Positions 26,421 to 63,086 are shown, numbered from the stretch's first letter. The stretch: 64,000 bases of DNA from an uncultured Candidatus Saccharibacteria bacterium (GCA_964612745.1 CAZTCH010000005.1:5448-69447); one strand, 5' to 3'. Notes: generated by a model from the letters alone, not told the origin. Translations and numbers: made by a program.

Positions 26421-26471
26421 CCGTTACCATGGTCACCTTCGTAACCGTTACGAAGGTGACCATGGTAACGG
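26421..26471. repeat. 51-bp palindrome with perfect 24-bp arms and a 3-nt spacer
   Basis: CCGTTACCATGGTCACCTTCGTAA ccg TTACGAAGGTGACCATGGTAACGG. Confidence 0.9.
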
Positions 26472-27015: not shown

Positions 27016-27049
27016 GGACCTAATTGTGACGGCCGTCACAATTAGGTCC
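27016..27049. repeat. 34-bp perfect palindrome with a GACGGCCGTC core
   Basis: GGACCTAATTGTGACGGCCGTCACAATTAGGTCC. Confidence 0.9.
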
Positions 27050-27106
27050 TAAGCGCAAAGAGCCTACGCCAACTCAATAGCAACAACAAATGGTATAATA
27101 ACGTAC

Positions 27107-35782: not shown

Positions 35783-36124
35783 ACGGGGAAAATACATGCC
35801 AGATGTGACAGATGGTGCCCATCATTAAGCTACTCCCCCACAAGAGAAAAACGACTATACAAACGATAGTCGTTTTTCTAGAAGCGGAGAGGGGGGATTC
35901 GGTCACCCACGGTGGAACTTCAACTCCTCAAGAGTCGTTTCAGTTCACACCTAACGAATTCGCGATGAATGGAATTCATTTCCATTCAAGCTCGTGTCGA
36001 CCCCGTCGCTATTTCATGCTCCAAGTATTCGCAGTTCATCCCGATGTACATCGGGACGCTCTTTTCGAACCCCAGCTCTCCTTATTCCAGAAGAAGCATA
36101 GCTACGAAGTAACTATGCTTCTTC

Positions 36125-39163: not shown

Positions 39164-39361
39164 CAGATAGGTTGGTCAAATATGGTCAATCTATCTGTGT
39201 TAAATATAAGTCTGGTAGTTAAACCAAAAATAGTAAAGTAGGGTTTATTTAAAAAGAAGACATAATCAAAAAATATTCTAGCTGTAAAGCAACTATCTTT
39301 TGGTCTGGAAATCAAAACTAAGTAATTTTTTGTGCTTCAAAAAGTGTAAAATTTGAAATAT

Positions 39362-47286: not shown

Positions 47287-48426
47287 CTAGTTTCCGAGTT
47301 GCCCGACATTCAGGAAGTACAAGCCACCATCCAAGTTGTTTTTGAAGTATAGGGATCCACCGTCAGAAGAAGTAAACATGCTCACGGGAGAAATGCGAGT
47401 TGCAACCTCGACCAGCTTTTGTGAACCAGCGGCTGCATCCACACGGTAGAGCAAGTCTCCGGAAGTGCTCGCAGAAGCAGCGTACAACACCTTACTATCT
47501 GGCGCCCAGGTGACTTGGTCTAATTTCGCTTCTATGTTCATGTTTTGCAACTCACCGGTGTAAACATTGCCTACCCACAACTGCCACGCACCAGATGCAG
47601 ATTTTCTGTTAAACGCAAATTTTTGACTGTCTGGACTCCACAAAGCGCCTACGTTAAACCCGTCTTTCACAATAGTCCGGAACAATTTACCATCTGGACT
47701 GACTAAGTTTATTTTATTTGTCGCTTCTTGGCTTTGTGTTCTCCAATACACAATCACTTTACCGTCAGGAGAAATAGCTAAGGCATTATCGTTTTCCCAC
47801 ATGTCTGTAACGGTTTGCCATGTGCTCATGTCTGCGGGAGAGACATTCAAATTTGTTTTGCCATTTTCTAACCAGAAATACAGCAACTGTTCACCATCTG
47901 GCAACCATGCAATGGACGTCACTTGTGGTGGGACATCTACATACACACCTTTATTGCTCACATAGACTGCCCATGCAGTACCGCCACTTGCTGTGGTCAA
48001 CTCAACTAAGTAGTTATTACCTGTAGCTGGCCAGTGTACCTTGGTCACCCCTGCTTTTGCGGGCACACCCAATTCTCGCTTGTTGGTTAGTTGTGGAGTA
48101 CCGGTAGTCAAATCTAAATCTGCTTGGAACAACTGCCCTTGGGTATTAAAGTACGCAAGCCCGTTGCCCTGATAAAACAAAATAGGACTCACGACGCTAT
48201 CGCTCGTCAGGTTAATTGGGGTTACTCCAGACAACGCAGTAGTTGGTGTTGCGATTGGAGTAGGATCGACAACAACCCCGCCTTCCTCTGTTGGAGCTGG
48301 CGTTGGATTTGTTGTGTTATTGGTAGTAGAATTTGTTTCGGATCTCCTCTGGAAAATAAGGAAAGTTAAAGTTCCAACAATCAGTAAGAAAATAGCGCCT
48401 AAAATGGCGATGGCTTTTTTATTCAT
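47287..48426 (-). CDS. Membrane-anchored TolB-like beta-propeller (PD40/WD40-like repeats) protein
   Basis: An N-terminal TM is followed by repeated SPDGK / WSPDSQ / WAPDSK motifs. Confidence 0.55.
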   Translation of the reverse strand: MNKKAIAILGAIFLLIVGTLTFLIFQRRSETNSTTNNTTNPTPAPTEEGGVVVDPTPIATPTTALSGVTPINLTSDSVVSPILFYQGNGLAYFNTQGQLFQADLDLTTGTPQLTNKRELGVPAKAGVTKVHWPATGNNYLVELTTASGGTAWAVYVSNKGVYVDVPPQVTSIAWLPDGEQLLYFWLENGKTNLNVSPADMSTWQTVTDMWENDNALAISPDGKVIVYWRTQSQEATNKINLVSPDGKLFRTIVKDGFNVGALWSPDSQKFAFNRKSASGAWQLWVGNVYTGELQNMNIEAKLDQVTWAPDSKVLYAASASTSGDLLYRVDAAAGSQKLVEVATRISPVSMFTSSDGGSLYFKNNLDGGLYFLNVGQLGN

Positions 48427-49091
48427 TTATTTTTCGCTAGCCTACAATACATTTAGTATAGCATGGGAGCAATGAGGAGGATAGAAGAAATAGAAGAGTG
48501 AGAAGAATTAGAAGAATTAGAAGAATTAGAAGAATTAGAGAGGAATTTTGAAAGCGGAGCCCGCCGAAGCTTTAGCGTAGGAGGGAGGGTAGAGAATAGA
48601 GAGAATGTAGATTGCTAAGTGCTAAGTGCTAAGTGCTAAGGGCTATGGGCTAAGAAAGAGTGTAATTTTCAATTTTTAATTTTTCCTACTTGTTACTGCT
48701 TTTTAAAAATTCCAAATCACAAGCACGAAATAACAAATAAATTCCAATCCGCCAGCCGGCGGACGAAAATCCCAAACAAATACATTTTTAACTCAAAAGT
48801 CAAAACTGAGAGGTCAAAACTTCAAATCAAAACTGTAAACTGCAATGCAATTCAGTTTTGCGTTTATAGTTGCAGTTTTGCGTTCCTGTCGTTAGATGGG
48901 CACCATCTGACACAGTGCTCGCAATTTTGGTTTGAGGGTGTATCGACAGAAGTAAATATAAATCTTGTATGTCAGATGGTGCCCATCTAACTCTCCCGTT
49001 TTTCTGGCGTGAAGACCTTAAGACACGAAGACATGACGACTCATTATTCTTTCGTTTGACGTGAAGACATGAAGACCTTCGACTTCTTCCC
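48427..49091. repeat. Mosaic intergenic repeat locus (largest copy) including a MITE-like unit
   Basis: It contains (AGAAGAATT)n, the GAGAATAGAG block, (GTGCTAA)4, CCAATCCGCCAGCCGGCGGAC, the AAAACTGAGAGGTCAAAAC block, the MITE at 48892-48990 and M1 copies at 49005-49080. Confidence 0.75.
48892..48990. mobile_element. MITE-like element, second full copy (TIR TTAGATGGGCACCATCTGACA)
   Basis: The TIRs are identical to the 14709..14808 copy. The internal sequence is about 80% similar by eye. Confidence 0.7.
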
Positions 49092-50141
49092 CTACTGTCC
49101 AAAGCTACCAAATGCAGAGAACGGTTGGCACAGTTCATTTGCACTCGCTGCTGTGGTGGACACATATGAAGCAATTTTCAATGCAAGCCCAAAGCTACTT
49201 AATCCGCTACACGTTGAAACAACCACGACCGCTAAGATAACAGCTAACACAACAAAGAAAAGAAACCAGACCATACCCACAATAACCCGCTCAAATATAT
49301 TTAAAGAGTTTGGTACAAAGAATAAAATTGTACCGAGCAATAATGTAACTATCAAGGACAACAAACCAGTGAAGCCCATTACCCATGGGTCATATGATGC
49401 ACGAAAGAGAGTAAGCGCTGTAGACTTACCCAAACCAGTCACCGCGCGCACCGTAGCTTTACCTAAATGCAAGTTAGCTAAATCTCGCGCCGTGTCTTGT
49501 ACGGTATTTTTAATCCCCTTTGCATCTATAGCAGTAACCAGCCCCAGCCCAGGAACTGCCTTACTTGCCACAGTCGCCGCTGCTTTCGCACCATCTTTTA
49601 CAACCTCTTTGGCAACTTGTTTACCAGCATCTTTAACCAACTCGCCCCCTACCGTACTAACAGCACTCCCCGCCCCCCGAGCAACCCGAGCTTTATTCTG
49701 CTCTCTAAGTCCTTCCCTGAACCCACGATTCGCTGCTTTATCTGCTTTGCCTTGTACAAACTGCTCTTTGGCGCGGTCGTACGATAAATTCTTTAGACCA
49801 GAGCCAGTGCGTGCATTTTGCGCATTCATGTCTACCCCTAGCCCTTGCCCAAGCTTTGCTGCACCGCGCTCATACACTTTTGCTCCTACCTTGTCGGCAG
49901 CGGCATCGCGAACTCGCCCTGCCACTGTCGTAGCATCACTCGCGCGCACGTCTTTGTTTGCAGCACTATCCACAACTGCGCCAGATGGATCTTGCGCCGC
50001 CACTATCTCGGCCCCGCCTTCAGCAACCTGTTCGCTATCGGGTGCAGAATCTTGCCCAGCACCAGCCAACCCAGACGACGAAAAGCGACGCGCAGCAGCG
50101 TCGGCGTTTGGATCATAAAACTGTTGTGGTTCGGTGGCCAT
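49092..50141 (-). CDS. Hypothetical protein with Ala/Lys-rich N-terminal domain and two or three C-terminal TM helices (T4SS-cluster member)
   Basis: The protein composition is coherent and the C-terminal TMs (LLSLIVTLLLGTILFFV and VWFLFFVVLAVILAVVVV) are clear. The antisense ORF 49069..50118 is low-complexity A/S/P-rich and is rejected. Confidence 0.4.
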   Translation of the reverse strand: MATEPQQFYDPNADAAARRFSSSGLAGAGQDSAPDSEQVAEGGAEIVAAQDPSGAVVDSAANKDVRASDATTVAGRVRDAAADKVGAKVYERGAAKLGQGLGVDMNAQNARTGSGLKNLSYDRAKEQFVQGKADKAANRGFREGLREQNKARVARGAGSAVSTVGGELVKDAGKQVAKEVVKDGAKAAATVASKAVPGLGLVTAIDAKGIKNTVQDTARDLANLHLGKATVRAVTGLGKSTALTLFRASYDPWVMGFTGLLSLIVTLLLGTILFFVPNSLNIFERVIVGMVWFLFFVVLAVILAVVVVSTCSGLSSFGLALKIASYVSTTAASANELCQPFSAFGSFGQ

Positions 50142-50201
50142 AGGAAAACAAAACTAACACAGGGACAATCCTGCACCACACCGTACATGCGCTACCAATG
50201 T

Positions 50202-52055
50202 CTATACAGGAGTCGTTTGCTGTTTTTGCTGTTCTTTAATTTCCAGCAACTGCCGTGGGTCAGTAGTAATTATCTGGTCTTCTATGTACGAAGCGTACAC
50301 CTTAATTGCCGCATGCTTCGTGCCTGCAAAAAAGATACCTTCCCCTACTTCACTTTCCAAAAGTAAATACTTTTCCCCTTCAGTTAAAAAGAATGTTTCG
50401 GCAATAATATTAATGGAAGCAGGGCTTTGTTTGAGCAGTAACTGGATAGATGAGTTCGTCACAATTGGCTTTCCATACGGAGACGCCATAAAGTCAGCAA
50501 CGTCTTGCGTAATGGTGGTTAAGCCTAAGTAGTACTTACGGCAGCGCTTCGCAATCCCGAAAATAAACCGAGCACTATCTTCGTGTTGCATCATGACCCA
50601 CGCTTCATCGAGCACTAATATACGTCGCTTGAGCTCGCTCCGTACTAAATTCCAAATATGGTTTACCAACACGAACATCGCAATTGGACGCAACGTGTCT
50701 TCGAGGTCTCGGATTGAGTACACCACAAGACTATTTTGCAAGCCCACATTGCTTTGGTGGTCGAAAATGCCGGCAAATGTTCCTTGGGTGTATTTGGAAA
50801 GTCGCTGTGCTAAGTTTTCTGCACCCACCATACCAGACAACACCTCTACCAAGTCTCCCATGGTCGGGAATTCTACTCCGGTGTTATCGCTGGTAGCAGT
50901 AATGTCTTTTTTAGCGTACGCCTGCCAAATCGCACGGTCCATAAGAGCCTCTTCTGTTGGGTCAAGCTTCCCCAGCATAATATTCATGAGCCCAAGCATA
51001 AAGATGACCGCACTACGCATAACATCTTCTTGGCTTTCCCCTTCTAGACCTCTGGGCAAATCAAATGGGTTAATGCGTGATTGAGAATTAAGCGAAATAT
51101 TCACAAAACTACCCCCCACTGCTTCTGCTAGATGCTGGTATTCATTTTCTGGGTCAATCACAATAACGTCTGTGCCAATCATCAGACTACGCAGAATTTC
51201 TAGTTTGATTGCATACGATTTTCCCGCACCAGATTTCGCGAACACCACTGCGTTGGCGTTCTCCATTTTGAACCGGTCAAACAAAATCAAGCTGTTATTG
51301 TGCCGGTTTATACCATATAAAATCCCGTCGTTACTCGTCACATCAGGCGACACAAAAGGGAACGTGGTGGAAAGTGGACCCGTATTTAAATTGTTTCCAA
51401 TATTTATTTCGTCGAGTGCATACGGCAACGTCGAAGTCAGCCCCTGCTCTGTTTGCATGAGCGCCCGTTTCGTCACAATCAGCTTTGCCCCTAGTGTGCT
51501 TTCCAAAACAGTCGATTGCTCGTCTAGCTCTTTGAGAGAGTTTGCATAAATGGTCAGGTACAGCGCAAACCGAAAATACTTTTCTGTTCCTTGCAGGAGC
51601 GCATCTCGCAGACCTTCCACATCTTTATATGCTGTTTCCAGCATTGGATCGCGCACCATCCCCTTTTCTTGGTTTATGGTCATTTGCGAACCAATTTCAC
51701 CCACCTTCGATCGCAACTTTTTCAGAATGGTCGCAGAGTCAATAGGGTAAATAAACATGGACACGTCTAACTCACCTTCGGAGTTAATCACGAACGAAAG
51801 CCACCCTGTCGACAAAAACCGTGGATACGCGAGCACAAAAAAGCTACGGCCATATTTGCCGTTCAGCAAAAAATATGAGCTTTCGTATTTCAGCGCTGCG
51901 GGAGATAGTAAATCTTTCAGCGTGGTAATACCTTCTTGGTATATTTTTTCAATCTCTGCAACTTGTTTACCAACCGCAGCAGAAGACTTCACTGCTTCCA
52001 GCTTTTCTTTTTGTGCCTGTATTTCTTCTGGTGTTTTGCTTGCAAATAAAGCCAT
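50202..52055 (-). CDS. VirB4/TrbE/TraC-family type IV secretion ATPase
   Basis: The 617-aa protein carries Walker A VVFAKSGAGKSY and the VirB4-typical Walker B ILVLDEAW. Its overall size and architecture fit VirB4. Confidence 0.75.
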   Translation of the reverse strand: MALFASKTPEEIQAQKEKLEAVKSSAAVGKQVAEIEKIYQEGITTLKDLLSPAALKYESSYFLLNGKYGRSFFVLAYPRFLSTGWLSFVINSEGELDVSMFIYPIDSATILKKLRSKVGEIGSQMTINQEKGMVRDPMLETAYKDVEGLRDALLQGTEKYFRFALYLTIYANSLKELDEQSTVLESTLGAKLIVTKRALMQTEQGLTSTLPYALDEINIGNNLNTGPLSTTFPFVSPDVTSNDGILYGINRHNNSLILFDRFKMENANAVVFAKSGAGKSYAIKLEILRSLMIGTDVIVIDPENEYQHLAEAVGGSFVNISLNSQSRINPFDLPRGLEGESQEDVMRSAVIFMLGLMNIMLGKLDPTEEALMDRAIWQAYAKKDITATSDNTGVEFPTMGDLVEVLSGMVGAENLAQRLSKYTQGTFAGIFDHQSNVGLQNSLVVYSIRDLEDTLRPIAMFVLVNHIWNLVRSELKRRILVLDEAWVMMQHEDSARFIFGIAKRCRKYYLGLTTITQDVADFMASPYGKPIVTNSSIQLLLKQSPASINIIAETFFLTEGEKYLLLESEVGEGIFFAGTKHAAIKVYASYIEDQIITTDPRQLLEIKEQQKQQTTPV

Positions 52056-52066
52056 ACAAATATTCC

Positions 52067-52759
52067 TTATTGGGCTGTTCCAACCACCTTAATATCGCCA
52101 AGGCTTTCACTGTTGAGCGCTGGTGCCGATTCAAAATTGTACGAATTATAATACAACTCAATCAGCGCCCCTGTATCGAGCCGTACCACTCGTAAGCCCA
52201 ACCCAGAGAGGTTGCTTACCACAGAATCCACTCGCTGCTGTAATTGCTCGCTGTAGTGCTTAATATTTTCTATCTTTTTGTTCGCCTGTGTTGCTCCACT
52301 ACCACCAAAAAGACCGGAAAACAAACCGCTCGAGGCAGGAGTAACCGTTTGGGCAAGCGGCACCACAATATAAAACTCTTTGCTCATGACGTTGGCGTCA
52401 TTTACCAGCTCAGAAATAAAATCAATGTAGTACTGTGCTTGCATGCGCAATAGTTCATTTTCCAAACGCTGTGTTATCAGTTGCAATTTGTTGACATAGT
52501 CAGCTACATTCAACTTCCTGCTTTGCATTAAAATCTGTATGGGAAAATCCAAAGAATTCAGGAACCGTTGGTACCCAAAGATTATGCCGTTTTGCTCGTC
52601 TTCATTTTTTAAATCAAAATTGGTAGATCCCACTGCTAAAACAGCTCGCAACGTTCCGTCTTGCATGATTACAAGATTGTCGCGAATCTCTGAGATGCGA
52701 AGCACATGTCCTGTCGGTGTGCCTGCATGTGTGGTTGTTTTTTTGCTTTCAGATGCCAT
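52067..52759 (-). CDS. Hypothetical cytoplasmic protein (T4SS-cluster member)
   Basis: It is a 230-aa ORF tightly packed between the VirB3-like and VirB4-like genes. Confidence 0.4.
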   Translation of the reverse strand: MASESKKTTTHAGTPTGHVLRISEIRDNLVIMQDGTLRAVLAVGSTNFDLKNEDEQNGIIFGYQRFLNSLDFPIQILMQSRKLNVADYVNKLQLITQRLENELLRMQAQYYIDFISELVNDANVMSKEFYIVVPLAQTVTPASSGLFSGLFGGSGATQANKKIENIKHYSEQLQQRVDSVVSNLSGLGLRVVRLDTGALIELYYNSYNFESAPALNSESLGDIKVVGTAQ

Positions 52760-52779
52760 AAAGTAAAACTCTCTTCGGG

Positions 52780-53259
52780 CTATGGTTTACGATTGAGTAG
52801 CTCGGCTTCTTGCTGTTCACGCTGCTCAAGCTGGTACTGAATCTTCTTTAAGCGTGACCGAGTATCTTCTTGATTTACTACCACAGGGGCTGGTTTTTGT
52901 ACTATATTTTTCACTTCGGTAAACACCATACCAGCCATTTCTTTCTGAAATGTGAAAAACTTCGGGCGTGACCAATAGTTTATAAGTGCTCCAGCAGAAG
53001 CGTAAAGTGGCCTGCCATTAAACTGGCCAAAAGCCAGCACAATCCCTGGAATACCAAACAGGAACGCTACCAAGCCAGTAATATAGTAGTCTTTTGTTGT
53101 TGAGTACGCCACAAACACAATAGCTGCAGTCGCCAGCAAAATCACGAACTGCTTAACCGTAAGCGGTCCAATGATTCTATCTTCTACTTCGGTGAATTGT
53201 GGCACAGGAAATTGCATATATGTACCGTTTTGATACTCAATAGCCAAACTACAGAACAC
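52780..53259 (-). CDS. Small two-TM membrane protein (VirB3/PrgI-like candidate)
   Basis: The 159-aa protein has TMs FVILLATAAIVFVAY and LVAFLFGIPGIVLAF. Its position immediately upstream of the VirB4-like gene matches the usual placement of VirB3 homologues. Confidence 0.4.
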   Translation of the reverse strand: MFCSLAIEYQNGTYMQFPVPQFTEVEDRIIGPLTVKQFVILLATAAIVFVAYSTTKDYYITGLVAFLFGIPGIVLAFGQFNGRPLYASAGALINYWSRPKFFTFQKEMAGMVFTEVKNIVQKPAPVVVNQEDTRSRLKKIQYQLEQREQQEAELLNRKP

Positions 53260-53318
53260 AATCTAACACTGTGTCGCGCATAGTTATTATACCATGCAGG
53301 CATAGCGCAAGAAGCATA

Positions 53319-54173
53319 CTAATTGCTTTTTGCTTGTTGTAAAAAGTCACTCAGTGCTTCAAAGTCCTGCTTACGCAATACCGCCTTACCTGCCGCCACG
53401 AGTTCTGCTTCGAGCGCTTCGAATGTGACGTGCTCCCGCAAAATCCGAGCGCCAACGGCTAAGTATGTTTTGTACAACGGCGAGCGCTCGAATGCTAATT
53501 GCACAGAAAAATACCCAAATCGTTGTGCTAACTGCGCAAATGCCTGCTGCACAAAGCCCATACCTCGAGCTTGCAACGTCACAAGATTTATCCGACTCAT
53601 ATCTTCCAAACTTCGCACCTGTTCGAGCACTTCAGTTGAGGTATCTAAAAACTCTTTCTGTGTTTCTACAGGCGCAGCAACAACAGGTTGTTGCAGAGTC
53701 TGAGGGTTTTCAACACGCTCCACCTGCAGAACAGCTTTTTGCTCGGCCCGCACAGGAGCAGTCACAGGAATATTGTTAATCAATACCGTGCGACCACTTG
53801 CAGACGGCTGGGCGATATCTGCAACCGGTGACCGATGCAGTGTTGTGGCAAAGTTTCTATCCAAAAAGGCAGATACACTATTTTGGCTTGTTCCTGCTGC
53901 AGGAGTAACCACTTCGGGCTTTTGAGCAGGTGCGGGTAAATCTAACTCTGGCGGGGCAGCACCCAAACGAGCTGCGGTCTGTACAGGGATGCGCTTTACT
54001 ACAGGCGCTTCGGGTAATTCAGGCTTTGGTTCCAACACCGTGCACAGCTCTAGTAACTGTTTGTCGCTCATAAGCGGCAACAAAGACAACCATTCTGCGC
54101 GTTCGGCGTCAGAAAGATTTGGAGAAGTCTCCACCAATATTCGTGCGTGTTCGATTTGGTTTTGATTTACCAT
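53319..54173 (-). CDS. Hypothetical protein (T4SS-cluster member)
   Basis: It is a 284-aa ORF with a Pro/Ala-rich central linker. Confidence 0.4.
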   Translation of the reverse strand: MVNQNQIEHARILVETSPNLSDAERAEWLSLLPLMSDKQLLELCTVLEPKPELPEAPVVKRIPVQTAARLGAAPPELDLPAPAQKPEVVTPAAGTSQNSVSAFLDRNFATTLHRSPVADIAQPSASGRTVLINNIPVTAPVRAEQKAVLQVERVENPQTLQQPVVAAPVETQKEFLDTSTEVLEQVRSLEDMSRINLVTLQARGMGFVQQAFAQLAQRFGYFSVQLAFERSPLYKTYLAVGARILREHVTFEALEAELVAAGKAVLRKQDFEALSDFLQQAKSN

Positions 54174-54198
54174 AGACAGTTTTTTGGTAAAGCTGGAA

Positions 54199-55374
54199 CT
54201 AAAGCTTCTGTTTTAAATCTTCAAGTTTGTGGGCAATTTTTTCTGCCAATGCCGCGTCTGGAGTTGCAACTTTTTGCACTGGTTCAGATTGCTTCGGAGG
54301 AGCTGGCGGATTTACTGGCTGTGTTACTACTGGAACAGGAGGAGTAGGAACTTCCTCTTCTTTCTGAGACTCAGCACCACCAACCTCAAGTCCTGTTTTA
54401 TCTGACGCACCGAGTGGTACTTGCACCAAAACCCCTTGTACGTTTGGAGTCCCAGTCATAGTAGCTTCACCCTGCTCTCCTGCAACAACCTCCGCAAGTT
54501 CAGCACTTTGGTCTTGCACCACCAACCCAGCTCGACTCGTAGTTGGTGTAACATCTACAAATTCTTCTAGTTCAACTTCAGTAACGTAGGGATCACTGAG
54601 CCAATCATAGAGTTCGCACAATGCCAAGAGCACCGCCTGATCTTCTTTGGAAAGCTTTCGCGCGTTTTCTGAATCGTTCACAAATTTTATACGATCCAGC
54701 GCTCCTCTGGAAATAGCATCGCTTGTGCTAACCGCATCGTACTCTGCCAACCAATGCTCAACAGTCGCAGACACCATCTTATCTAAAACTTTTATCTCTG
54801 TCCCAAGCATTTCTTGGTTTTTTTTCAAATAAGGCACGAACTGCCTACCCCACTCCCCGCCGTCATATTCTGGTTCGGCAACGTAGTAGGCATAACGAAT
54901 ACTGCTCAAAAAAACTTCTCCCGCTTCCAAATAATACAAAATATCTGTTTGCAATAGAGCCGCCAACAAGTCATGACTAACGTATCGAATATTTTGAAAT
55001 ACGACAGAACGAACCCCTGAAAGCGCCCGCAATGCAACTACCGCCTGACCCAACCTGAGAACAAAAAAATCAGACACAACACACAAAATCCACTTCCCAA
55101 AGTAAAAGTCAGGATTGTGTGAAGCTGCAACCAATAGTTCATCTACCCTTGAAAAGTTCTCCGCTTTTGCATTCTGAAAAATTTCAAATACAACTTCGAG
55201 CCAAGCTGTCCTTGCGTTGAGCGTATCAAACTCACCCAACTCGAGCAAAGTATTAATTTGGTCAAGTGTTGCTGGGCCGCACAGCGAAAGACCTTCGCCC
55301 CCAAAAAGACTAGCTATTTGGGTGGGCAATTGTATTTTCGCTAACTTATTTTGAATATGTGCGGCTGTAACCAT
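54199..55374 (-). CDS. Hypothetical protein (T4SS-cluster member)
   Basis: It is a 391-aa ORF with a Pro-rich C-terminal tail (PTPPVPVVTQPVNPPAPP). Confidence 0.4.
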   Translation of the reverse strand: MVTAAHIQNKLAKIQLPTQIASLFGGEGLSLCGPATLDQINTLLELGEFDTLNARTAWLEVVFEIFQNAKAENFSRVDELLVAASHNPDFYFGKWILCVVSDFFVLRLGQAVVALRALSGVRSVVFQNIRYVSHDLLAALLQTDILYYLEAGEVFLSSIRYAYYVAEPEYDGGEWGRQFVPYLKKNQEMLGTEIKVLDKMVSATVEHWLAEYDAVSTSDAISRGALDRIKFVNDSENARKLSKEDQAVLLALCELYDWLSDPYVTEVELEEFVDVTPTTSRAGLVVQDQSAELAEVVAGEQGEATMTGTPNVQGVLVQVPLGASDKTGLEVGGAESQKEEEVPTPPVPVVTQPVNPPAPPKQSEPVQKVATPDAALAEKIAHKLEDLKQKL

Positions 55375-55387
55375 GGTAACTAGTTAA

Positions 55388-58369
55388 TTAAAACCCTGCG
55401 TCTGCCTTAAATTTCTCACGAAGTTTTTTAACTTCATCAGCATTTAAATCTTCTTTCCCCAACGCAGCGTCCAGCTCATCACTGCTATTTGAATACAAAT
55501 CTGCAAACTTACGCAACTTTTCCTTAGAAAGAGAGGCAATCACATCGAAAGGTTTATTACCTTTTAGCTTACCCCACTTTGCCATAAAGCTCGCTGCGAG
55601 TACTGGATCAGCAAACATATCTGCGTGCATATTTGCTGCTTGTTCGTTAGCGGATTTCTTCTCCCAGCGCTTCTTACGGAAGCGAGAGTTTTGCTGAGCA
55701 TCGGTATACACTTTCACATCATCACCAGATTTTTCACCATGCGTTGCAACAGTAGCAAACTCTTTCTTATCGCTAGTTTCGGAGCCATCAACCATCTTCA
55801 CCTCAACAGGATCAATGACATTATCCAGTTTTCCGTCGCTAATCATTTTCGCGTTCACTTTATCTCGCAATTGCTCCAAGTTTCGACGGCTCAATCCCGC
55901 CGCTGCACCCGCTTCATAAAAATGCTCAATCGAAGCATTCTTCCCTGCGGCAATAGCAGCGAGCTCTACAGTAGCCGCAGCTGCCCCTGGCCCACCAGAC
56001 GCAACCACACGATTCAAGTGGTCTTCTACCAAACGCTTTTTCATGTCATCAAAGCTACCTTTGTCCAAAGCAACATCTGTACGTGCCAACAACTCTACAG
56101 TCTTGGCAAAAGAGCTTGCCGCAGAGCCGAATACTGCTGCCAAGTTTTCTGTATTTTCTTTTGCGGTGTTATCGCGTATGTCTTCTTTTTTATCTTTTTG
56201 AGCTTTTGCCAGATCTGAATCTTTTAGAGCTTGCACAGCCTTTGGTGTTTCGCCTTTACGCAATGAGCGTGCATCTTTTGCATATGCCCCCATCAGATTT
56301 TGTCGGTCCTGAACATCGCTCTTGCGCTTCTTCTTTGCTGCTTCCCACACAGAGCCGCCGGTAGCAGCATTAAATGCAACACCTTTCCACCCCTTCATAT
56401 CATCTGCTTTTTTTGGCCCTAAATACTTTTCAACATTGTCATAGTACTTGATCTTAGCGTTATCTTTCAGCTTATCCACCCCCGCCTGCGCTAATACAAT
56501 TGGAGTTTTTGCCACAGTGGTTGCTGCTTTCCCCACAGAAGAAACAGCGCCTGCTGCGTACCCGCCCAAAGCAGCGGCAGGGGCAAATGCCATACCTGTC
56601 GTCTTGTTGAGTGTTTTGGTCACAAACCCACCAGCCCCGCTCCCAAAGCTAGTCGCCACCTTTAAAGTCATGTATAGAAACACCAGTGGGATAATGTTAC
56701 TTGCCAGAGCGAACGCCGCGCTATTTAACCAACTTTCGTTTAATGCCACTTGGCTCTTTGAAGCCAAATCTTGAATAACTGTTCTATTTTTTACAGTCAT
56801 GAGAGCAGTCAAGTTCAGCATGAACCCAACTGCAGGAGTAACAAGTGCCCAATTTATAAATTTATTCCACCAGTCCTTAGAGTAGCCTCCTGTTTTTGGA
56901 AAAATGGAAGCTACATACGGTATTGGCGAAAGCATTAAAAGCAACCACAGCATAACAACCCGAATACACGCCAAAATAGTAATTGCCAATATAGCAAAGA
57001 AAGCCGCAAAAGCAATAAAGAATTGCGTCACAATTCGAATAGTTTCAGAGAAATCACCCAACTGTGCCCCAGGGGTGTCCGCCCAGATGTTACTCACAAA
57101 AAGGGTATTGATGATTGCCCTCACAGCCCCACTGCCATCAGATAAAAACTGCTGCTGCAATGTATCTGCAATACCCAAAACAGCTTGCGCAATAGTTAAG
57201 CTAAAGTTAATGAGGATTGCCCCAATTATCAGTTTTACGAGCAAGTCTTTAACCGCATAACCGTTAATGCGGAACACTGTAGCCACACCAATTGCCACAA
57301 TAGCCAGAATGAACAATATGTTCCCAAGGTTGCGGAAAATTTCCCATGCTGGGTAAATAACCTGTGCAAATTCGTCGCTAAAAGTACGGATAGACAAGAC
57401 CGCTTCCAATAGGGTCCCAATTGCACTTGCAGCAGCTGACATGGTCGAAATAAAGAATTTCAATACTCCACCAATCACAAAGTTAACAAAACCAATCAAA
57501 GGATTATTTTTTCCAGGATCAGCTTGGTTAAGCTCATTTGTTTCGGTCCCAGTTACATTTAGCTTTGTTGTCCACTCAGCTTTAGGAATTGCTTGCAACT
57601 GGCCACCAACTGTTTGCATTGCCTGCACAACAATAGTGTACTCTTTTGGACTTTTAGGGTAGGAACATTCTAGCCGTGCTCCGAGTGCAGCAGCTTGCTT
57701 TATCCCCACCCCACAATCGTACTGAATACTAGTAGCAGCTGGCCCTCCTGCTTTTACATACGTCACATTGTATCTGTAGGTAACCGAAGTAACCCCAACT
57801 GAAGTGCCTCCAACTGGTAGAACTGCCAGAGAAGGGTCGCCGGTAGTTGTAGCAGCACCAGAAGTAACAACAAGACTCCCTCGAAGGGTTACTAAATACC
57901 TGTTTGACTCATTGTCATAGTCATACTGCATCTTCACTGTAAGCTGATGGTCGCCTGCAGTAGTAAATAAGTCTGGGGTTACAAGCAGATTAAAATCTGC
58001 AGTAAGTCCTGCATTTGCTTTAGAAAATATACCGAGCCCACCAGTATCTGGTCCGTTGTACAAATTTAAGCTATACCCAGAGCGGTCTGTTAAAGAACCT
58101 TTGCACTCCGGCTTTACCGTTGCCTGCAGCGCCATGTATTGGCCCACTACATAAGGGCCAGTTCGAATGGCCGTATCCTTCAGAATTATACCTTCTGTCT
58201 CACAAGCAGACGCTGCTTGCAGGACTCGTCCCCTCGGAGGCTCTACTTCTTGCGCAAAAGCAGACGGAACAAGGGGCGTAAAAGCCAAAGCCGCCACCCC
58301 AAACAGGGTAGCTGCTAAAGCTATTTTGCCATACAATTTCAAATTTATTTTAGAGAAGAAATTCACCAA
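55388..58369 (-). CDS. Large polytopic membrane protein, VirB6/TrbL-like candidate, with N-terminal ectodomain and Lys-rich cytoplasmic tail
   Basis: The 993-aa protein has a signal peptide and a ~280-aa ectodomain. Six to eight or more TM helices lie between residues ~300 and 620. A long charged C-terminal domain follows. Confidence 0.5.
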   Translation of the reverse strand: MVNFFSKINLKLYGKIALAATLFGVAALAFTPLVPSAFAQEVEPPRGRVLQAASACETEGIILKDTAIRTGPYVVGQYMALQATVKPECKGSLTDRSGYSLNLYNGPDTGGLGIFSKANAGLTADFNLLVTPDLFTTAGDHQLTVKMQYDYDNESNRYLVTLRGSLVVTSGAATTTGDPSLAVLPVGGTSVGVTSVTYRYNVTYVKAGGPAATSIQYDCGVGIKQAAALGARLECSYPKSPKEYTIVVQAMQTVGGQLQAIPKAEWTTKLNVTGTETNELNQADPGKNNPLIGFVNFVIGGVLKFFISTMSAAASAIGTLLEAVLSIRTFSDEFAQVIYPAWEIFRNLGNILFILAIVAIGVATVFRINGYAVKDLLVKLIIGAILINFSLTIAQAVLGIADTLQQQFLSDGSGAVRAIINTLFVSNIWADTPGAQLGDFSETIRIVTQFFIAFAAFFAILAITILACIRVVMLWLLLMLSPIPYVASIFPKTGGYSKDWWNKFINWALVTPAVGFMLNLTALMTVKNRTVIQDLASKSQVALNESWLNSAAFALASNIIPLVFLYMTLKVATSFGSGAGGFVTKTLNKTTGMAFAPAAALGGYAAGAVSSVGKAATTVAKTPIVLAQAGVDKLKDNAKIKYYDNVEKYLGPKKADDMKGWKGVAFNAATGGSVWEAAKKKRKSDVQDRQNLMGAYAKDARSLRKGETPKAVQALKDSDLAKAQKDKKEDIRDNTAKENTENLAAVFGSAASSFAKTVELLARTDVALDKGSFDDMKKRLVEDHLNRVVASGGPGAAAATVELAAIAAGKNASIEHFYEAGAAAGLSRRNLEQLRDKVNAKMISDGKLDNVIDPVEVKMVDGSETSDKKEFATVATHGEKSGDDVKVYTDAQQNSRFRKKRWEKKSANEQAANMHADMFADPVLAASFMAKWGKLKGNKPFDVIASLSKEKLRKFADLYSNSSDELDAALGKEDLNADEVKKLREKFKADAGF

Positions 58370-58420
58370 ATTACAAGATTAGCTATTTTTACTGTACAAT
58401 ATTTTGCAAGAATTCCCAAA

Positions 58421-60109
58421 TTATGTGGGTATAGGAGTTGGAGTATTTCTCGAATTTTCTTGTTGTTCGAAAATCATTGCCTCACACGCCTCAGGGCTTT
58501 GAATACACTCAGCAGCTGCATTATTAGTCACTGGCTTAGTAGAAGGAGTAAAATCACCAGGGATAAGGAAGTCAACTACTGGCACTTGTATGCACGATTC
58601 TTGCTCTCGTAATGTAACTCCGCCTTTTACGATGAGCTGATTTATAACACTCAGCAATATATTTGTTACAAAGTTCCCAAATCCTGGTCCGCCGGTTGTA
58701 GAATTACTTGGCAAAATATTAAATAGGGAATTAAGACCTGCCTGAATTTTGTTGCTAATAAAATCAACAGAAGAAACTATGGCGTTTGCAGACTTTGCGT
58801 CAATAGGGCTCTTCTTCCCTGGGGAGAGCAACTCTGCTTGCTTAGCTGTTTCTGCATTCGTTTTGGCGGCCTGCGCCAGTGCGTTGTAGAACAAATTGTA
58901 CCCTTCAGAATCTCCACGAAGACTATTACTGGCAATAATCTTCTCGTAGAACTTCGGATCGCTTGTATCGAGCGGCACCGATGGGTCAAACCCAAGGTAT
59001 TCCAAAGATTTTGCCTTGAGCGCCTTACGTATATCTTCTTGATCTCTTTTTTGACAGTTAAATTGTGGAATAAAAGCTTGAACAATGAGCTGATCTTTGA
59101 GCTCAGGAACATACTTCTCTAAATAGTTGTTCACATACTTACCGGTAACAGCATCACCGTAATATAAGAAGTTAGCAATGAGGTAGTTACTTTCAATTCG
59201 TAAAACCAATTCAGATATCTTATTTTTCGCAAAATTAAGCACCATAGCACCAAGAGCACTTCGCAGAAATTGCTCTGCCAAACGAGGAAGGTCCACCCCA
59301 ATTGCAACAGTAAACTGCGCATTGGCTACTTTTACAAACTTGCCTGTGGTCGCGTCTACGTATTGGGTTTCAGAGTAGAGCGGAATTTCTCCATACGTCT
59401 TCGTCAGCCCTTGCACTGCTTTGTTGATGGACGCCACTTGGTTTTGCGCAGCAGCAAATGCAGGATATGCTTGATCCCACTGCCTACCACGAGCCGCAAC
59501 ACCACGCGCAACCGCATCTGCATTTTCCACCGTTTGTTTTTGCACAGCAATAGCGCCCACCATCGACTTCTGCAAGTCTAGTGCATTTTTTGGTACTGGC
59601 AAACTGTACAAAGTATCTAACGTATCATCTACCAACTTAACTGCTTGTGCGGTTTGCACAGGGCTTGGATTTTCTCCGTAAACACCATCAAATGACCCTG
59701 ACGCTTCCAGATAATAAGTAGTCATAGCGTCCAGAGCTGCGGTAGCATATTTGCTTATCGCTTCCACAGAAGCTTCATTTGTTACTGTGAATCTACTTGC
59801 ATCTATTTTCGGCTGTAACGCAGGCTTATTTGCCCCTAAAGACGCATTCACATCTATTGCCAATGAACCTTCATCTACCACTTTACTTAAAATATCTCGG
59901 CTCGCAACCGGATCTACTTTCAACTCTGCCAAATAGGTCCGGTACTCTGCCAACGTCTTCTCTTGGTTATCTAAATACGCCTGTTTTTGTTCGGGCGTTG
60001 GTTGCTGGTAGCCAAACTCAGGATTACTCCAAATAGTAGTTGTCACCAAAACAACTACAGCAAGAGCAGAGACACCGATAATAAGTTTTTGTTGGTTTAT
60101 TAACTTCAT
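58421..60109 (-). CDS. Secreted/membrane-anchored hypothetical protein (T4SS-cluster member)
   Basis: The 562-aa protein has an N-terminal TM (LIIGVSALAVVVLVTTTIW). Confidence 0.4.
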   Translation of the reverse strand: MKLINQQKLIIGVSALAVVVLVTTTIWSNPEFGYQQPTPEQKQAYLDNQEKTLAEYRTYLAELKVDPVASRDILSKVVDEGSLAIDVNASLGANKPALQPKIDASRFTVTNEASVEAISKYATAALDAMTTYYLEASGSFDGVYGENPSPVQTAQAVKLVDDTLDTLYSLPVPKNALDLQKSMVGAIAVQKQTVENADAVARGVAARGRQWDQAYPAFAAAQNQVASINKAVQGLTKTYGEIPLYSETQYVDATTGKFVKVANAQFTVAIGVDLPRLAEQFLRSALGAMVLNFAKNKISELVLRIESNYLIANFLYYGDAVTGKYVNNYLEKYVPELKDQLIVQAFIPQFNCQKRDQEDIRKALKAKSLEYLGFDPSVPLDTSDPKFYEKIIASNSLRGDSEGYNLFYNALAQAAKTNAETAKQAELLSPGKKSPIDAKSANAIVSSVDFISNKIQAGLNSLFNILPSNSTTGGPGFGNFVTNILLSVINQLIVKGGVTLREQESCIQVPVVDFLIPGDFTPSTKPVTNNAAAECIQSPEACEAMIFEQQENSRNTPTPIPT

Positions 60110-60226
60110 ACTTTATTTCAAAAAAATTGTTCGCAAAAGTACTTTCAGTATATCACTTTTTTTCATGCACAGGCAAAAGAAAAGTTGCACTTACGCAAAG
60201 TAAGTGCAACTTTTATAAAATGAGCT

Positions 60227-62467
60227 CTACTGACCAAACTGTTTGCTTGTCGTCAAGCTCCAGTTACCAGCCCCGCCAATAGCAGAGTTAGAAATTGTTT
60301 TAATCTTTGCTTCCACAATACCGGTAACTACAGGACAGCTATTCTTGTTTGCAGAACATGCAAGCCAATCAAGCTTCTTCCAAGAGTCGTCTGCACCAGA
60401 ATCACTCAAGCGGTACCAGACTTCAAACTCGCCAGTCTTGAGCCCTGCCGCCATCGCTGCGGTTGGGCTAATTTTGGCTAGTTGCCTTCCAGTCGAGTCA
60501 GTTCCAGCGCTGGTAATACAAGGCATGGGAATTAACACCGAAACACTTTCTCGAGCGGTGAGGTCATCGGTCGTTGCCACATATTCACCTTGTGCAGTCC
60601 GAACCGAGAGCACGTCACCCTTCTTTAGAGTAAATGTTGTCCCAGATACTCTACGACCATTGATGTATATAGTTGCCCCTGCACTGTTTCGAGTATCTAC
60701 CGCTGCTAGTATTGTCCCGTTAGACTGCACATTCACCCCAATAATAGGATCAGTCGACCCAACAGAACCACCAGCATCACACTGAGCCAAGTAGCCACCT
60801 AAACCACGAACATCTCTGGTTGGAGTAGGAGTTGCTTGCCCAACAGGAGTAGTAGATGCTGCCGGAGTTGGAGTAATCAGTGGTGTACCGCCACCAACAC
60901 CCGCACCAGTCCCACCACACACCCACAGACCACTTGCACCAGTACCCGTACCACCAATACTTGTTCCAGGCGTTAGCGTAGCCCTACCAGAACAGCAGCG
61001 ACTTCCTGAGCCACCATAGCGGTTTACCGTACGATATGTGTACCCATCTGCCTCACATTGTGAAATCAAAGTTGTTCCTGGAGGCCTACATGCTTCTTGG
61101 CCACCAGCTACCAATTTCTTAGTATTCGTTGGGCAAGGTGCACAGTTGGGTGAAACACTCGTGCGAGATGAACTACCTATATTCACATATTCATCTGGGC
61201 ACAAAGAAATAAAAGTTCGAGTTGGGGTCGGTGTAGGTGTTGGAGTTACCAAAGGCACCGTCCCTGGAGCGCCACACCGTGCTGGCAAGCCTCGTTCGTC
61301 CACACACTTTTGATCAGTTGGAGTTGGAGAAGCAGTTGGTGTTGGGGTAAATGTCCCACCAGGGCCACCACCACACACCCAGAGACCACTTGCACCAGTT
61401 CCTGTACCACCAATACTGCTCCCCGAAATCAAAGTAGCACGTCCTGCACAGCAGCGACTTCCAGAGCCACCATAACGGTTAACCGTACGATATGTGTACC
61501 CGTCTGCTTCACATGAAAGGGTTAATGTCGTTTCAGGAGGGCGACACGCTTCTTGCCCGCCAGCTGTCATTTTCTTCGTACCAAGTGGGCACCGCACACA
61601 GTTCGGAGAAACGCTCGTGCGAGATGAGCTACCTATATTCACATATTCATCTGGGCACAAAGAGCCAGACGTTGTTGGGGTTGGCGTTGATCGTACAGTA
61701 GGAGTAGGAGTCGGGGTTGGAGTTACCAATGGCACCGTCCCTGGAGCGCCACACCGTGCTGGTAACCCACGTTCATCAACGCATTTTTGATCAGTTGGAG
61801 TTGGCGAGCTAGAAGGGGTTGCAGTTGGAGTAAACGTCCCACCGGCGCCACCACCACACACCCAGAGACCACTTGCACCTGTGCCTGTACCACCAACACT
61901 GCTCCCAGGAATCAAAGTGGCACTACCTGCACAGCAGCGACTTCCAGTGCCGCCAAATCTATTTACTGTTCTATATGTATACCCATCTGGCTCACAAGAC
62001 AAGGTAAGTGGCGTCTTCGAAGGAAGACACGCCTCTTGCCCACCAGCTGTCATTTTCTCAGTGTTCGTCGGACAAGGTGCACAGTTAGGAGAAACGCTCG
62101 TGCGAGAAGAGCTGCCAATATTTACCTGACCATCTGGACACAAAGAACCAGCCGCACCGCCACGTATTGGCAATTCAGAAGCCCCACTATCAGATCGAGG
62201 CGGTGCCGAAGTGCCCAAATTCACCTCAGTCGGAGTAGGTGTCGACATAGTACTGCCATTAAACACACGCCGTAAAGTCGAGAGTAAATCGGCACGAGCA
62301 ACACCTACCGAAAAAACCTTGCTTGGTTTTACGATATGCCCTGTGAATCCTGCCATAAAAGCACACACAAGTACACCTACTAGTGCGTAGCGCTTCCACC
62401 CAAGACTGCTAACACGCGTGCTCGCTTGTTTTAAGCGATGCATTTGAGAATTTAAAAAATGTACCAT
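60227..62467 (-). CDS. Cys-rich surface protein built from three ~152-aa tandem repeats plus a C-terminal beta domain
   Basis: An N-terminal TM is followed by repeats LCPD(G/E)xVNIGSSSRTSVSPNC..CP..T.KM.AGGQEAC...YTYRTVNR.GG.GSRCC.G.ATL..G.S.GGTGTGASGLWVCGG separated by PTPTPT linkers. Confidence 0.6.
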   Translation of the reverse strand: MVHFLNSQMHRLKQASTRVSSLGWKRYALVGVLVCAFMAGFTGHIVKPSKVFSVGVARADLLSTLRRVFNGSTMSTPTPTEVNLGTSAPPRSDSGASELPIRGGAAGSLCPDGQVNIGSSSRTSVSPNCAPCPTNTEKMTAGGQEACLPSKTPLTLSCEPDGYTYRTVNRFGGTGSRCCAGSATLIPGSSVGGTGTGASGLWVCGGGAGGTFTPTATPSSSPTPTDQKCVDERGLPARCGAPGTVPLVTPTPTPTPTVRSTPTPTTSGSLCPDEYVNIGSSSRTSVSPNCVRCPLGTKKMTAGGQEACRPPETTLTLSCEADGYTYRTVNRYGGSGSRCCAGRATLISGSSIGGTGTGASGLWVCGGGPGGTFTPTPTASPTPTDQKCVDERGLPARCGAPGTVPLVTPTPTPTPTRTFISLCPDEYVNIGSSSRTSVSPNCAPCPTNTKKLVAGGQEACRPPGTTLISQCEADGYTYRTVNRYGGSGSRCCSGRATLTPGTSIGGTGTGASGLWVCGGTGAGVGGGTPLITPTPAASTTPVGQATPTPTRDVRGLGGYLAQCDAGGSVGSTDPIIGVNVQSNGTILAAVDTRNSAGATIYINGRRVSGTTFTLKKGDVLSVRTAQGEYVATTDDLTARESVSVLIPMPCITSAGTDSTGRQLAKISPTAAMAAGLKTGEFEVWYRLSDSGADDSWKKLDWLACSANKNSCPVVTGIVEAKIKTISNSAIGGAGNWSLTTSKQFGQ
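60830..62160. repeat. 456-bp tandem DNA repeat, about three copies, inside the 60227..62467 gene
   Basis: Near-identical plus-strand shadow ORFs at 61038, 61494 and 61881 show the 456-bp period. The protein repeats are more than 85% identical by eye. Confidence 0.8.
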
Positions 62468-62504
62468 ACGATTTTGTTTCCTCTGGCCAAAAACGAACTA
62501 AGGT

Positions 62505-63086
62505 TTAGAGCGCTCTAAGTGCAGTACTGTTTATAATTTGACCCACAAAAGGGTCTTGAATATTGCCACTTGCTTGCATGACTATGTAATCGGTGTCACT
62601 TTTTTGGATTACTACGAGCTGAACAGTGCTTTTATTTTCTGTAAATGTAACTGTCGCAGTGCGTAAGCCACTATTGGTTACTCCTTCTACTACTTTAGTA
62701 ACGCCAGCCTTAGAAGCGGCTAAACTAGTCGCAACAGATGCCAAAGTTTTTTCTACTGTCTTCACGCCACGGCTAATGCGCAGTTGCGTGCTTCCTGCAG
62801 CTGTCGCAGAAATATCCAAGGTATTGCTCACCACCAACAGACCCTCTGCGCCTGTAACTTCCTGCGCATACCAAGAAAGTGGCATGGAGAAGGTATACCC
62901 TTCCGCTTCAAATGGAATCCACCCAAGCGGAGCCACAGTACCAGAAAGTACCTGTGAAGCTGCATCGGCAGTCATAGGCGTTGGTCCGGTATCTTTAGTT
63001 TGAGCAGTATCACCGCCCTTATTAGAGCAGCCTGCTGCGAGTAAGGCAATCGCAGAAGCGGCAATCACTATTTTTTTTGCTTGCAT
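62505..63086 (-). CDS. Lipoprotein (first gene of the T4SS-like cluster)
   Basis: The lipobox is MQAKKIVIAASAIALLAAGCS. Confidence 0.5.
   Translation of the reverse strand: MQAKKIVIAASAIALLAAGCSNKGGDTAQTKDTGPTPMTADAASQVLSGTVAPLGWIPFEAEGYTFSMPLSWYAQEVTGAEGLLVVSNTLDISATAAGSTQLRISRGVKTVEKTLASVATSLAASKAGVTKVVEGVTNSGLRTATVTFTENKSTVQLVVIQKSDTDYIVMQASGNIQDPFVGQIINSTALRAL

Follow-up and report, generated by a model that had tools for sequence, protein, structure and literature searches.

A Patescibacteria-type chromosomal type IV secretion locus without detected relaxase or coupling protein in a Doudnabacteria-like genome

What does a gene cluster do that resembles a type IV secretion system (T4SS) and comes without relaxase or coupling protein? 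The question is raised by a locus of roughly 14 kb at 49092-63086 of a stretch deposited as an uncultured Candidatus Saccharibacteria bacterium (GCA_964612745.1 CAZTCH010000005.1:5448-69447), whose full 64,000 nucleotides are called the window here. A preliminary description, made from the sequence alone, had proposed eleven co-directional, tightly spaced minus-strand genes, used for protein secretion, adhesion or host interaction rather than for conjugation. The listing of open reading frames (ORFs) bears out the arrangement, since all genes it had named were found on the minus strand at 49092-63086, in one direction and with intergenic gaps of 11-117 nt; the count, however, is ten, as it also is in that description's own list (Table 1). 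The cluster is almost certainly a chromosomal T4SS of the Patescibacteria (Candidate Phyla Radiation, CPR) and a derivative of the mating-pair-formation (MPF) class FATA. As an explanation of the whole, a vertically inherited Patescibacteria T4SS that lost its link to relaxase-dependent DNA transfer accounts best for the data and is probable, and analogy with related systems tips the balance towards a non-conjugative, host-interaction function.

The identity of the cluster is carried by its motor core. The 617-aa product, described at the outset as a clear VirB4 ATPase, has intact Walker A (FAKSGAGKS) and Walker B (VLDEAW) motifs and matches NCBIfam conju_CD1110 above its cutoff (E 1e-106, 358 bits; cutoff 325), Pfam P-loop_TraG (3e-23) and the VirB4 C-terminal domain in PDB 4ag5 (1.6e-43); the VirB4/TraC-type profile matches on which the preliminary description had made its call depend are thus present. 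Its database homologues exceed 8000, mostly of ~615 aa, with 74-77% identity among the best matches listed; the few that bear a source name are Patescibacteria or Doudnabacteria. Identity to VirB4s in metagenome-assembled genomes (MAGs) of Doudnabacteria, Moranbacteria, Paceibacteria and other Patescibacteria is 57-99%, and the best plasmid-borne VirB4s, from Actinobacteria and Firmicutes, are 28-36% identical. With the CD1110 family as its best NCBIfam model, the protein is closest to FATA-class VirB4s by profile and identity, and by this proxy it would belong inside the Patescibacteria clade. Exact look-up of a database protein 100% identical to the window VirB4 (P0001) returned no encoding contig.

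The 230-aa protein, initially left as an unknown, turned out to be TrsD-like and to resemble the N-terminal part of a full-length VirB4. It matches NF041427 (TrsD; 7.5e-5), VirB4_plasma at model positions 99-233 (2.4e-8) and conju_CD1110 at model positions 15-123 (2e-3), and because it matches both TrsD and the N-terminal parts of two VirB4 models we regard it as the TrsD-type companion of the ~615-aa VirB4. Among the 80 loci of relatives (one genome per GTDB species) onto which the window proteins were mapped, most have its gene directly upstream of virB4. Fusions of the two proteins were considered and dropped: the N-terminal extension of P0080, one of the long VirB4 entries (720-807 aa), is not TrsD-like, and an 874-aa ORF in locus L041 is an ORF-calling artefact, since TrsD is separate there. 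The 159-aa protein, placed from the start at the VirB3 position, has two transmembrane (TM) segments in the hydropathy scan of translated products that was used for TM segments and topology throughout, holds a conserved position and passes the threshold of Pfam PrgI (4.1e-9, 37.3 bits; cutoff 27), which makes it a monoderm-type VirB3. Its true start is probably the ATG at 53217, giving 145 aa, because the orthologue in the closest relative (L001) has that length.

For the 993-aa protein the preliminary description had read a polytopic architecture with a large ectodomain and a VirB6/TrbL-like topology, which hydropathy, position and the TrbL matches of its homologues corroborate. It comprises a signal/TM segment, an ectodomain of ~250 aa, 6-7 TM segments (residues 291-569) and a hydrophilic tail of ~420 aa. 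Its own match to Pfam TrbL extends over model positions 24-210 of 215 (1.3e-3, 19 bits; cutoff 25.9), and 13 of its 44 positional homologues match the same family, the best at 2.1e-6; the part conserved among these homologues is the TM core, residues 290-600. The assignment as a VirB6-like polytopic protein is therefore weak but family-supported, the protein's own match lying below threshold and that of its homologues reaching the family. No PDB entry was matched by profile or sequence search with this protein.

The nearest relatives of the locus are found in Candidatus Doudnabacteria MAGs, some of them mislabelled as uncultured Saccharibacteria, followed by Moranbacteria/Paceibacteria-type genomes with 57-62% VirB4 identity; by this comparison the cluster sits in a Doudnabacteria-like genome. 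All classes sampled share the core order VirB6-like protein, cytoplasmic protein, PrgI, TrsD, VirB4 and TM-hairpin protein, which is conserved from Doudnabacteria- to Moranbacteria-type loci in dozens of Patescibacteria loci. In Doudnabacteria-type loci the order extends from KsgA through variable secreted or Cys-rich proteins to the VirB6-like, 391-type and 284-type proteins, and on through PrgI, TrsD, VirB4, the TM-hairpin protein and a PD40 propeller to RadA and, on the opposite strand, RecG. The PD40 gene stands directly downstream of the gene after virB4 in loci L002-L020 of this type (24-59% identity), and its product, co-directional and syntenic, is possibly an extension of the T4SS cluster. 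The earlier likening to minimal VirB4/VirB6-only systems does not hold, as PrgI (VirB3), TrsD and no fewer than two other subunits of conserved position belong to the cluster as well.

With the closest relative (L001), nucleotide identity is ~85-90% and VirB4 protein identity 98.9%. Five genes, from the 284-aa through the 349-aa gene, allowed comparison with it; their ratio of nonsynonymous to synonymous substitution (dN/dS) is 0.011 for VirB4, 0.010 for TrsD, 0.015 for PrgI, 0.05 for the 284-aa and 0.13 for the 349-aa protein, values that are rough because dS is near saturation. Ratios of 0.01-0.13 indicate functional genes under strong constraint, and these five sequences are under strong purifying selection, very strong for VirB4, TrsD and PrgI. 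Such selection would agree with a need for the system in epibiotic growth, a need known only from the Saccharibacterium discussed below.

The absence of VirD4, relaxase and integrase, already remarked on in the preliminary description, was confirmed by family scans that took in every substantial ORF of the window: neither relaxase, VirD4/TcpA and integrase families nor the VirB2/TrbC pilin and VirB7/9/10 families found a match. The pilin families PF18895 and PF04956 were likewise not matched by the cluster proteins or by the small ORFs of the window, a VirB1-like cell-wall hydrolase is not encoded inside it, and its 64 kb contain no replication or partition genes. The GC content of the cluster (0.44-0.49) equals that of the remainder of the window and the GC skew keeps its sign. 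Because the housekeeping flanks are syntenic in relatives, the GC content is unremarkable and no integrase was found, the sequence context supports a vertically inherited, chromosomal locus rather than a mobile element.

A survey of 3,035 Patescibacteria genomes, in classes including Doudnabacteria, provides the frame for these results (Quinonero-Coronel et al. 2025, Microb Genom; PMC12102498). It found VirB4 in 2,417 genomes, and the 2,425 VirB4s made up one monophyletic clade within MPF-FATA; TrsD was the most abundant T4SS component, PrgI-type VirB3 and VirB6 lay near virB4, and VirB8 and VirB1 were rarely detectable, VirB8 homologues being rare outside class ABY1. Relaxases occurred in 103 of the 3,035 genomes and rarely near virB4, most VirD4-type coupling protein (T4CP) homologues were far from virB4, and a VirB2-like pilin near virB4, present in 1,135 VirB4-carrying assemblies, was not universal. 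KsgA was a typical neighbour; in class ABY1 comF, recG and radA were neighbours as well, and functional coordination was suggested. In the Saccharibacterium Ca. Southlakia epibionticum, transposon sequencing (Tn-seq) showed that epibiotic growth requires a T4SS that has an essential pilin array and no recognisable coupling protein or relaxase (Wang et al. 2023, Cell; PMC10633639), findings that a 2025 FEMS review restates (PMC12857230).

Compared with this Patescibacteria-clade T4SS (PMC12102498; exemplified by SEML1_0006-0019 of Ca. Southlakia epibionticum, PMC10633639), the window cluster is likewise chromosomal, and its genes for a ~615-aa VirB4, a separate TrsD, a PrgI-type VirB3 and a VirB6-like protein are arranged as VirB6 - X - VirB3 - TrsD - VirB4; the same order is given for another genome in Table S3 of the survey supplement, with unannotated genes at both unknown positions. 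Relaxase and T4CP are absent nearby in both, a candidate peptidoglycan hydrolase is close, KsgA is a neighbour, and recG, radA and comF are present as in class ABY1. The cluster differs in the absence of a VirB2-like pilin gene or array, which extends to the whole window, in a lineage-specific surface set (the 562-aa, 746-aa and lipoprotein products) and the 284-aa product, none of which PMC12102498 names as a component, and in its hydrolase candidate, which is set off from the operon by KsgA and UvrD and lies on the opposite strand. Since the locus fits the literature feature by feature except for the missing VirB2-like pilin, the reading first given to it is correct and already published, and the cluster is an intact, strongly conserved example of a known system, to which our additions are incremental. 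That secretion, adhesion or host interaction is served rather than conjugation, as had been proposed for the locus, is also the conclusion reached for the family in PMC12102498, PMC10633639 and PMC12857230.

The MPF-FATA systems of monoderm bacteria (pGO1/pSK41 Trs, pCF10 Prg/Pcf, CTn2/CD1110-type and ICEBs1) share with the cluster a CD1110-type VirB4, a PrgI-like VirB3 and a polytopic VirB6 analogue, as well as a TrsD-like protein, as in pGO1, and the lack of the outer-membrane components VirB7, VirB9 and VirB10. Unlike them, the cluster has no detected relaxase, T4CP (PcfC/TcpA/VirD4), VirB8-like protein (PrgL/TraM/TcpC) or PrgB-type adhesin, lies off mobile elements and reaches at most 36% VirB4 identity. 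More distant parallels are offered by Bordetella Ptl and Brucella VirB, which function, or are believed to function, with no coupling protein in or close to the system, and by the extended-VirB6 systems of Rickettsiales, whose VirB6 resembles the 993-aa protein in its large additional hydrophilic domains; these are, however, diderm systems of class MPF-T, built on a VirB7/9/10 core and equipped with VirB2/B5 pili, and their subunits are unrelated to those of the window cluster beyond VirB3, VirB4 and VirB6.

Besides VirB4, TrsD, PrgI and the VirB6-like protein, the cluster encodes six proteins without Pfam or NCBIfam assignment. Two of these, of 391 and 284 aa, had been described as unknown and cytoplasmic, which agrees with the lack of a convincing TM segment in either. 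The AlphaFold2 (AF2) model of the 391-aa protein shows an all-alpha N-terminal region of 265 residues, a disordered Pro-rich region and a C-terminal helix; the 391-type family keeps its position in other classes, and cross-class homology was shown. In the 284-aa protein, which has no Pfam or PDB match, a small helical motif at the N-terminus is joined through a Pro-rich linker to a C-terminal domain of ~100 aa, motif and domain both being conserved, and homologues of this protein are restricted to 16 Doudnabacteria-type loci, where they occupy the same position. No VirB8-like scaffold (PrgL, TraM, TcpC) was recognised in the cluster by Pfam or NCBIfam sequence matches, and the AF2 models of the 391-aa and 562-aa proteins match no known T4SS fold.

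The C-terminal TM hairpin reported for the 349-aa protein was located at residues 258-276 and 290-308, behind 250 N-terminal residues of Ala/Gly/Lys-rich low complexity. A gene at this position, +1 of VirB4, was recovered in 77 of the 80 loci, and in nearly all products 2-3 TM segments follow each other closely; a cell-wall hydrolase domain, of the SLT or the Peptidase_M15/VanY kind, occurs in single members. That the hairpin protein is a VirB2-like pilin was considered and is not established: none of 74 '+1' proteins matches the VirB2/TrbC/T4SS_pilin families of Pfam (PF04956, PF18895), and a PDB search with the 349-aa or '+1' hairpin profile gave noise only. For another genome, the survey's supplementary table places VirB2 at +2 of VirB4, not +1 (PMC12102498). 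The plus-strand mirror ORF at 49069-50118 is regarded as an antisense artefact because relatives conserve the minus-strand product only. Owing to their fixed operon positions across classes, the 391-type and hairpin proteins are reasonable targets for structural and interaction studies.

The 349-aa gene is separated from the PD40 gene by an unusually long intergenic region (48427-49091, 665 bp) with 9-nt and 14-nt microsatellite-like repeats and no Rfam match; its counterpart in L001 is a spacer of only ~270 bp. Here too lies one of the sites of AGATGGGCACCATCT, a 15-nt palindromic motif (6-3-6 dyad) with 9 occurrences in the window against 0.03 expected (10581-10620, 14711-14806, 26908-26947, 35810-35824 and 48894-48988). 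It occurs mostly as inverted pairs that form long intergenic hairpins, with one perfect 22-nt pair just downstream of the 349-aa gene. Because it is absent from all 81 related loci, we regard it as a genome-specific REP-like element or a regulator-binding site.

At the other end of the cluster, secreted or anchored products are encoded by four of the ten genes, and the three of these that the preliminary description had assigned to the surface or the exterior by sequence features were recovered with those features. The 746-aa protein, claimed as a Cys-rich repeat surface protein, has a signal anchor, three repeats of ~160 aa with ~10 Cys each (33 Cys in total; period 483 nt with 81% matches in the gene by Tandem Repeats Finder, TRF), Pro/Thr linkers and a C-terminal domain; it has no Pfam or PDB match, and in relatives (L005) a homologue was found for the C-terminal domain only. 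The 562-aa protein, claimed as secreted, has an N-terminal TM anchor and is read as extracellular and membrane-anchored; its AF2 model contains a four-helix-bundle domain (residues 80-245) and a second helical domain (274-430), and PDB profile and sequence searches found no match. In the 193-aa protein, claimed as a lipoprotein, a lipobox-like motif (LLAAGC) is present; it has a homologue in none of the 80 related loci, and an identical gene copy lies on Logan contig L081. In locus L004, VirB4 is 89% identical, whereas the three accessory or surface proteins compared are 34-43% identical, so the periphery evolves much faster than the motor.

The 746-aa and 193-aa genes may be transcribed separately from the core, because a strong terminator-like hairpin (15-bp stem, then a T-rich tail) lies at 60180-60214, within the 117 nt that separate the 746-aa gene from the 562-aa gene. 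With this sole exception the terminator consensus scan gave no clear operon boundaries; promoter consensus matches in the cluster were no more frequent than in shuffles, and Rfam returned no match within or around it even at E 0.1.

The window holds a second block of surface-protein genes on the minus strand (15096-25878), which encodes a 1341-aa protein (26 Cys, GBS_Bsp-like repeat), anchored proteins of 370 and 179 aa, two proteins of ~170 aa without assignment, a DsbA-like thioredoxin (21980-22831) and an 826-aa protein with 16 Cys and a TM segment at both ends. DsbA homologues stand inside the T4SS locus of relatives L012 and L020, which fits disulfide-rich surface proteins like the 746-aa one. 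The genes downstream in Moranbacteria-type loci, for a 6-TM protein and a Cys-rich protein of ~900 aa, have no homologues in the window; the 826-aa protein was tried as a counterpart of the latter and is unrelated by BLAST.

Table 1. Genes of the T4SS cluster and neighbouring genes discussed in the text (positions in the window unless a contig is named)
Feature	Coordinates	Strand	Basis or context
193-aa putative lipoprotein	62505-63086	-	LLAAGC lipobox-like motif
746-aa Cys-rich repeat surface protein, candidate adhesin	60227-62467	-	33 Cys, repeats in sequence
562-aa membrane-anchored extracellular all-helical protein	58421-60109	-	N-terminal TM, AF2 model
993-aa extended VirB6/TrbL-like polytopic membrane protein	55388-58369	-	topology, TrbL matches of positional homologues
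391-aa cytoplasmic protein, unannotated family	54199-55374	-	no convincing TM; AF2 model
284-aa cytoplasmic protein	53319-54173	-	no convincing TM; 16 positional homologues
159-aa PrgI/VirB3-like two-TM protein	52780-53259	-	Pfam PrgI
230-aa TrsD-like protein	52067-52759	-	NF041427, VirB4_plasma matches
617-aa VirB4-family ATPase, core motor	50202-52055	-	conju_CD1110, P-loop_TraG, 4ag5
349-aa protein with C-terminal TM hairpin	49092-50141	-	hydropathy, position +1 of VirB4
379-aa membrane-anchored PD40/WD40-like beta-propeller protein	47287-48426	-	Pfam PD40 2.8e-9, synteny
RadA	45781-47130		within 20 kb of T4SS
RecG	43254-45347		within 20 kb of T4SS
ComF-like protein	34427-35131		phosphoribosyltransferase (PRTase) domain, 15 Cys; within 20 kb of T4SS
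RecX	30804-31292		within 20 kb of T4SS
UvrD/PcrA-type helicase, 739 aa	L081 1706-3925, from ~44 bp past position 64000		just beyond KsgA
LysM+CHAP protein, 401 aa	L081 55-1260, ~2.7 kb past window end	opposite to UvrD	

The genes around the cluster bear on its function. Housekeeping genes of the window include GatCAB, MiaA, RRF, RseP, ClpB/C-like, RsmE, a sigma factor, RecX, ComF-like, RecG, RadA and KsgA, and the flanks KsgA, RadA and RecG are syntenic across relatives. Logan contig L081 (5.85 kb) is 100% identical over the last 1882 bases of the window and reaches 3.97 kb beyond its end, adding a UvrD-type helicase, whose homologue, next to KsgA, keeps synteny with the T4SS in many loci, and a LysM-CHAP protein (Table 1). 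In at least 20 Moranbacteria-type T4SS loci, LysM-CHAP homologues are encoded directly upstream of the VirB6-like gene and in the same direction, and the LysM-CHAP protein is the best candidate for a VirB1-like wall hydrolase.

A mechanism consistent with these data can be proposed. VirB4/TrsD hexamers would dock on VirB3 and VirB6 and energise a translocon in the cytoplasmic membrane, with TrsD supplying contacts of the N-terminal type; as cytoplasmic proteins with Pro-rich linkers, the 391-aa and 284-aa products may serve as adaptors or as a scaffold. A fast-evolving surface portion, made up of the VirB6 ectodomain and the 562-aa, 746-aa and lipoprotein products, would span the wall and touch the host cell, and the LysM-CHAP hydrolase encoded beyond the window might open or remodel peptidoglycan. 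The substrate, transferred upon contact in support of an epibiotic lifestyle, would most likely be a protein or some other macromolecule directed to the host or derived from it; plasmid or DNA of an integrative and conjugative element (ICE) would be an unlikely cargo. Several points weigh against this picture. No substrate, effector or pilin was pinpointed for the cluster, and the window has no VirB2-like gene (PF18895/PF04956), in contrast to the essential pilin array of the characterised Saccharibacterial system, from which, a single genetically characterised member of a different class, the function is extrapolated. The VirB6 call for the 993-aa protein lies under the Pfam threshold, and neither of the two modelled proteins (391 and 562 aa) has a VirB8-like (NTF2-like) fold. 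The scan for coupling protein and relaxase covers the 64-kb window, and a VirD4 homologue may lie elsewhere in the genome. Finally, RadA, RecG, ComF, RecX and UvrD as neighbours leave room for a role related to DNA.

This last point leads to an unlikely alternative, in which the T4SS handles DNA in the manner of Helicobacter ComB or archaeal Ced and, together with the recombination and competence neighbours, imports host or environmental DNA or nucleotides without relaxase. RadA and RecG directly downstream are syntenic with the T4SS across Doudnabacteria-type loci, the ComF-like and RecX genes lie in the window, UvrD/PcrA beside KsgA is syntenic in many loci, the association of comF, recG and radA in class ABY1 has been taken to suggest functional coordination (PMC12102498), and VirB4 matches CedB weakly (E 3.4e-13). 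Against this, the CedB score (49 bits; cutoff 700) and the CedD score (17.8 bits; cutoff 600) are far under their cutoffs, the best model is the conjugative CD1110, and CedA-like or ComB-specific subunits were not found in the window. Competence of Southlakia requires comEC and type IV pili, and comEC can be deleted without loss of viability, unlike the essential T4SS (PMC12857230, PMC10633639). The RadA/RecG adjacency is absent from Moranbacteria-type loci and hence not a general property of the system; it is perhaps plain conserved housekeeping synteny. A more far-reaching proposal, which we consider rather improbable, is that the 391-type and hairpin proteins are Patescibacteria-specific core subunits replacing coupling protein and VirB8 scaffold, in a Doudnabacteria/ABY1 machine coupled to the syntenic RadA, RecG, UvrD and ComF for relaxase-free acquisition of nucleic acids or their exchange with the host.

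The fast-evolving surface proteins could instead be the whole purpose of the machine, VirB4 exporting or assembling surface proteins or an unrecognised pilus for host attachment without transfer of any substrate into the host. Of the ten genes, four are for secreted or anchored proteins; the three compared in L004 evolve much faster than the motor, the 746-aa protein is rich in Cys and repeats, and the characterised Saccharibacterial system includes an essential pilin array. We nevertheless judge this quite improbable: the surface proteins need no T4SS for their export because they have Sec-type signal or anchor sequences of their own, the window yielded no VirB2-like pilin gene, and the extreme conservation of motor and channel suggests translocation. 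Still further from the data is a mating-pair-formation module of an integrated conjugative element, or its decayed remnant, with relaxase and coupling protein outside the window or lost. The nearest VirB4s outside the Patescibacteria are CD1110-type ATPases on monoderm plasmids, PrgI and TrsD are families of conjugation systems, and the portion of the genome inspected is 64 kb; but integrase, relaxase, T4CP and replication or partition genes are all missing from these 64 kb, the locus lies between the same housekeeping genes in many relatives, its composition shows no anomaly, a dN/dS of ~0.01 excludes decay, and relaxases are rare in Patescibacteria and seldom near virB4 (103 of 3,035 genomes; PMC12102498), all of which makes this origin highly improbable.

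Three further features were observed in the window. The stretch 39353-42101, the lowest in GC (0.40-0.42), encodes a Dcm-type C5 cytosine methyltransferase with a 20-nt overlap with a 570-aa HATPase_c_3 protein and may be a restriction or defence island. At 25879-27100, ~1.2 kb of low GC hold no convincing ORF and no Rfam family at gathering threshold, with dense perfect palindromes (25-nt arms at 26421-26471, 18-nt arms at 27015-27050). A gene of the '23S rRNA-intervening sequence protein' family (PF05635) lies between gatB and gatA at 12312-12683.

Relaxase-less T4SSs are near-universal in Patescibacteria and essential for growth on the host in one genetically tractable species, and their cargo is a recognised open question. 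For this family, the locus described here is a clean and complete Doudnabacteria-type example, and its analysis an incremental annotation of a published system. It draws attention to two unannotated proteins that hold fixed operon positions across classes, with cross-class homology shown for the cytoplasmic one, and to a LysM-CHAP hydrolase and a UvrD-like helicase that travel with the T4SS. The motor proteins are among the most constrained of the locus (dN/dS ~0.01), and its surface components turn over quickly.

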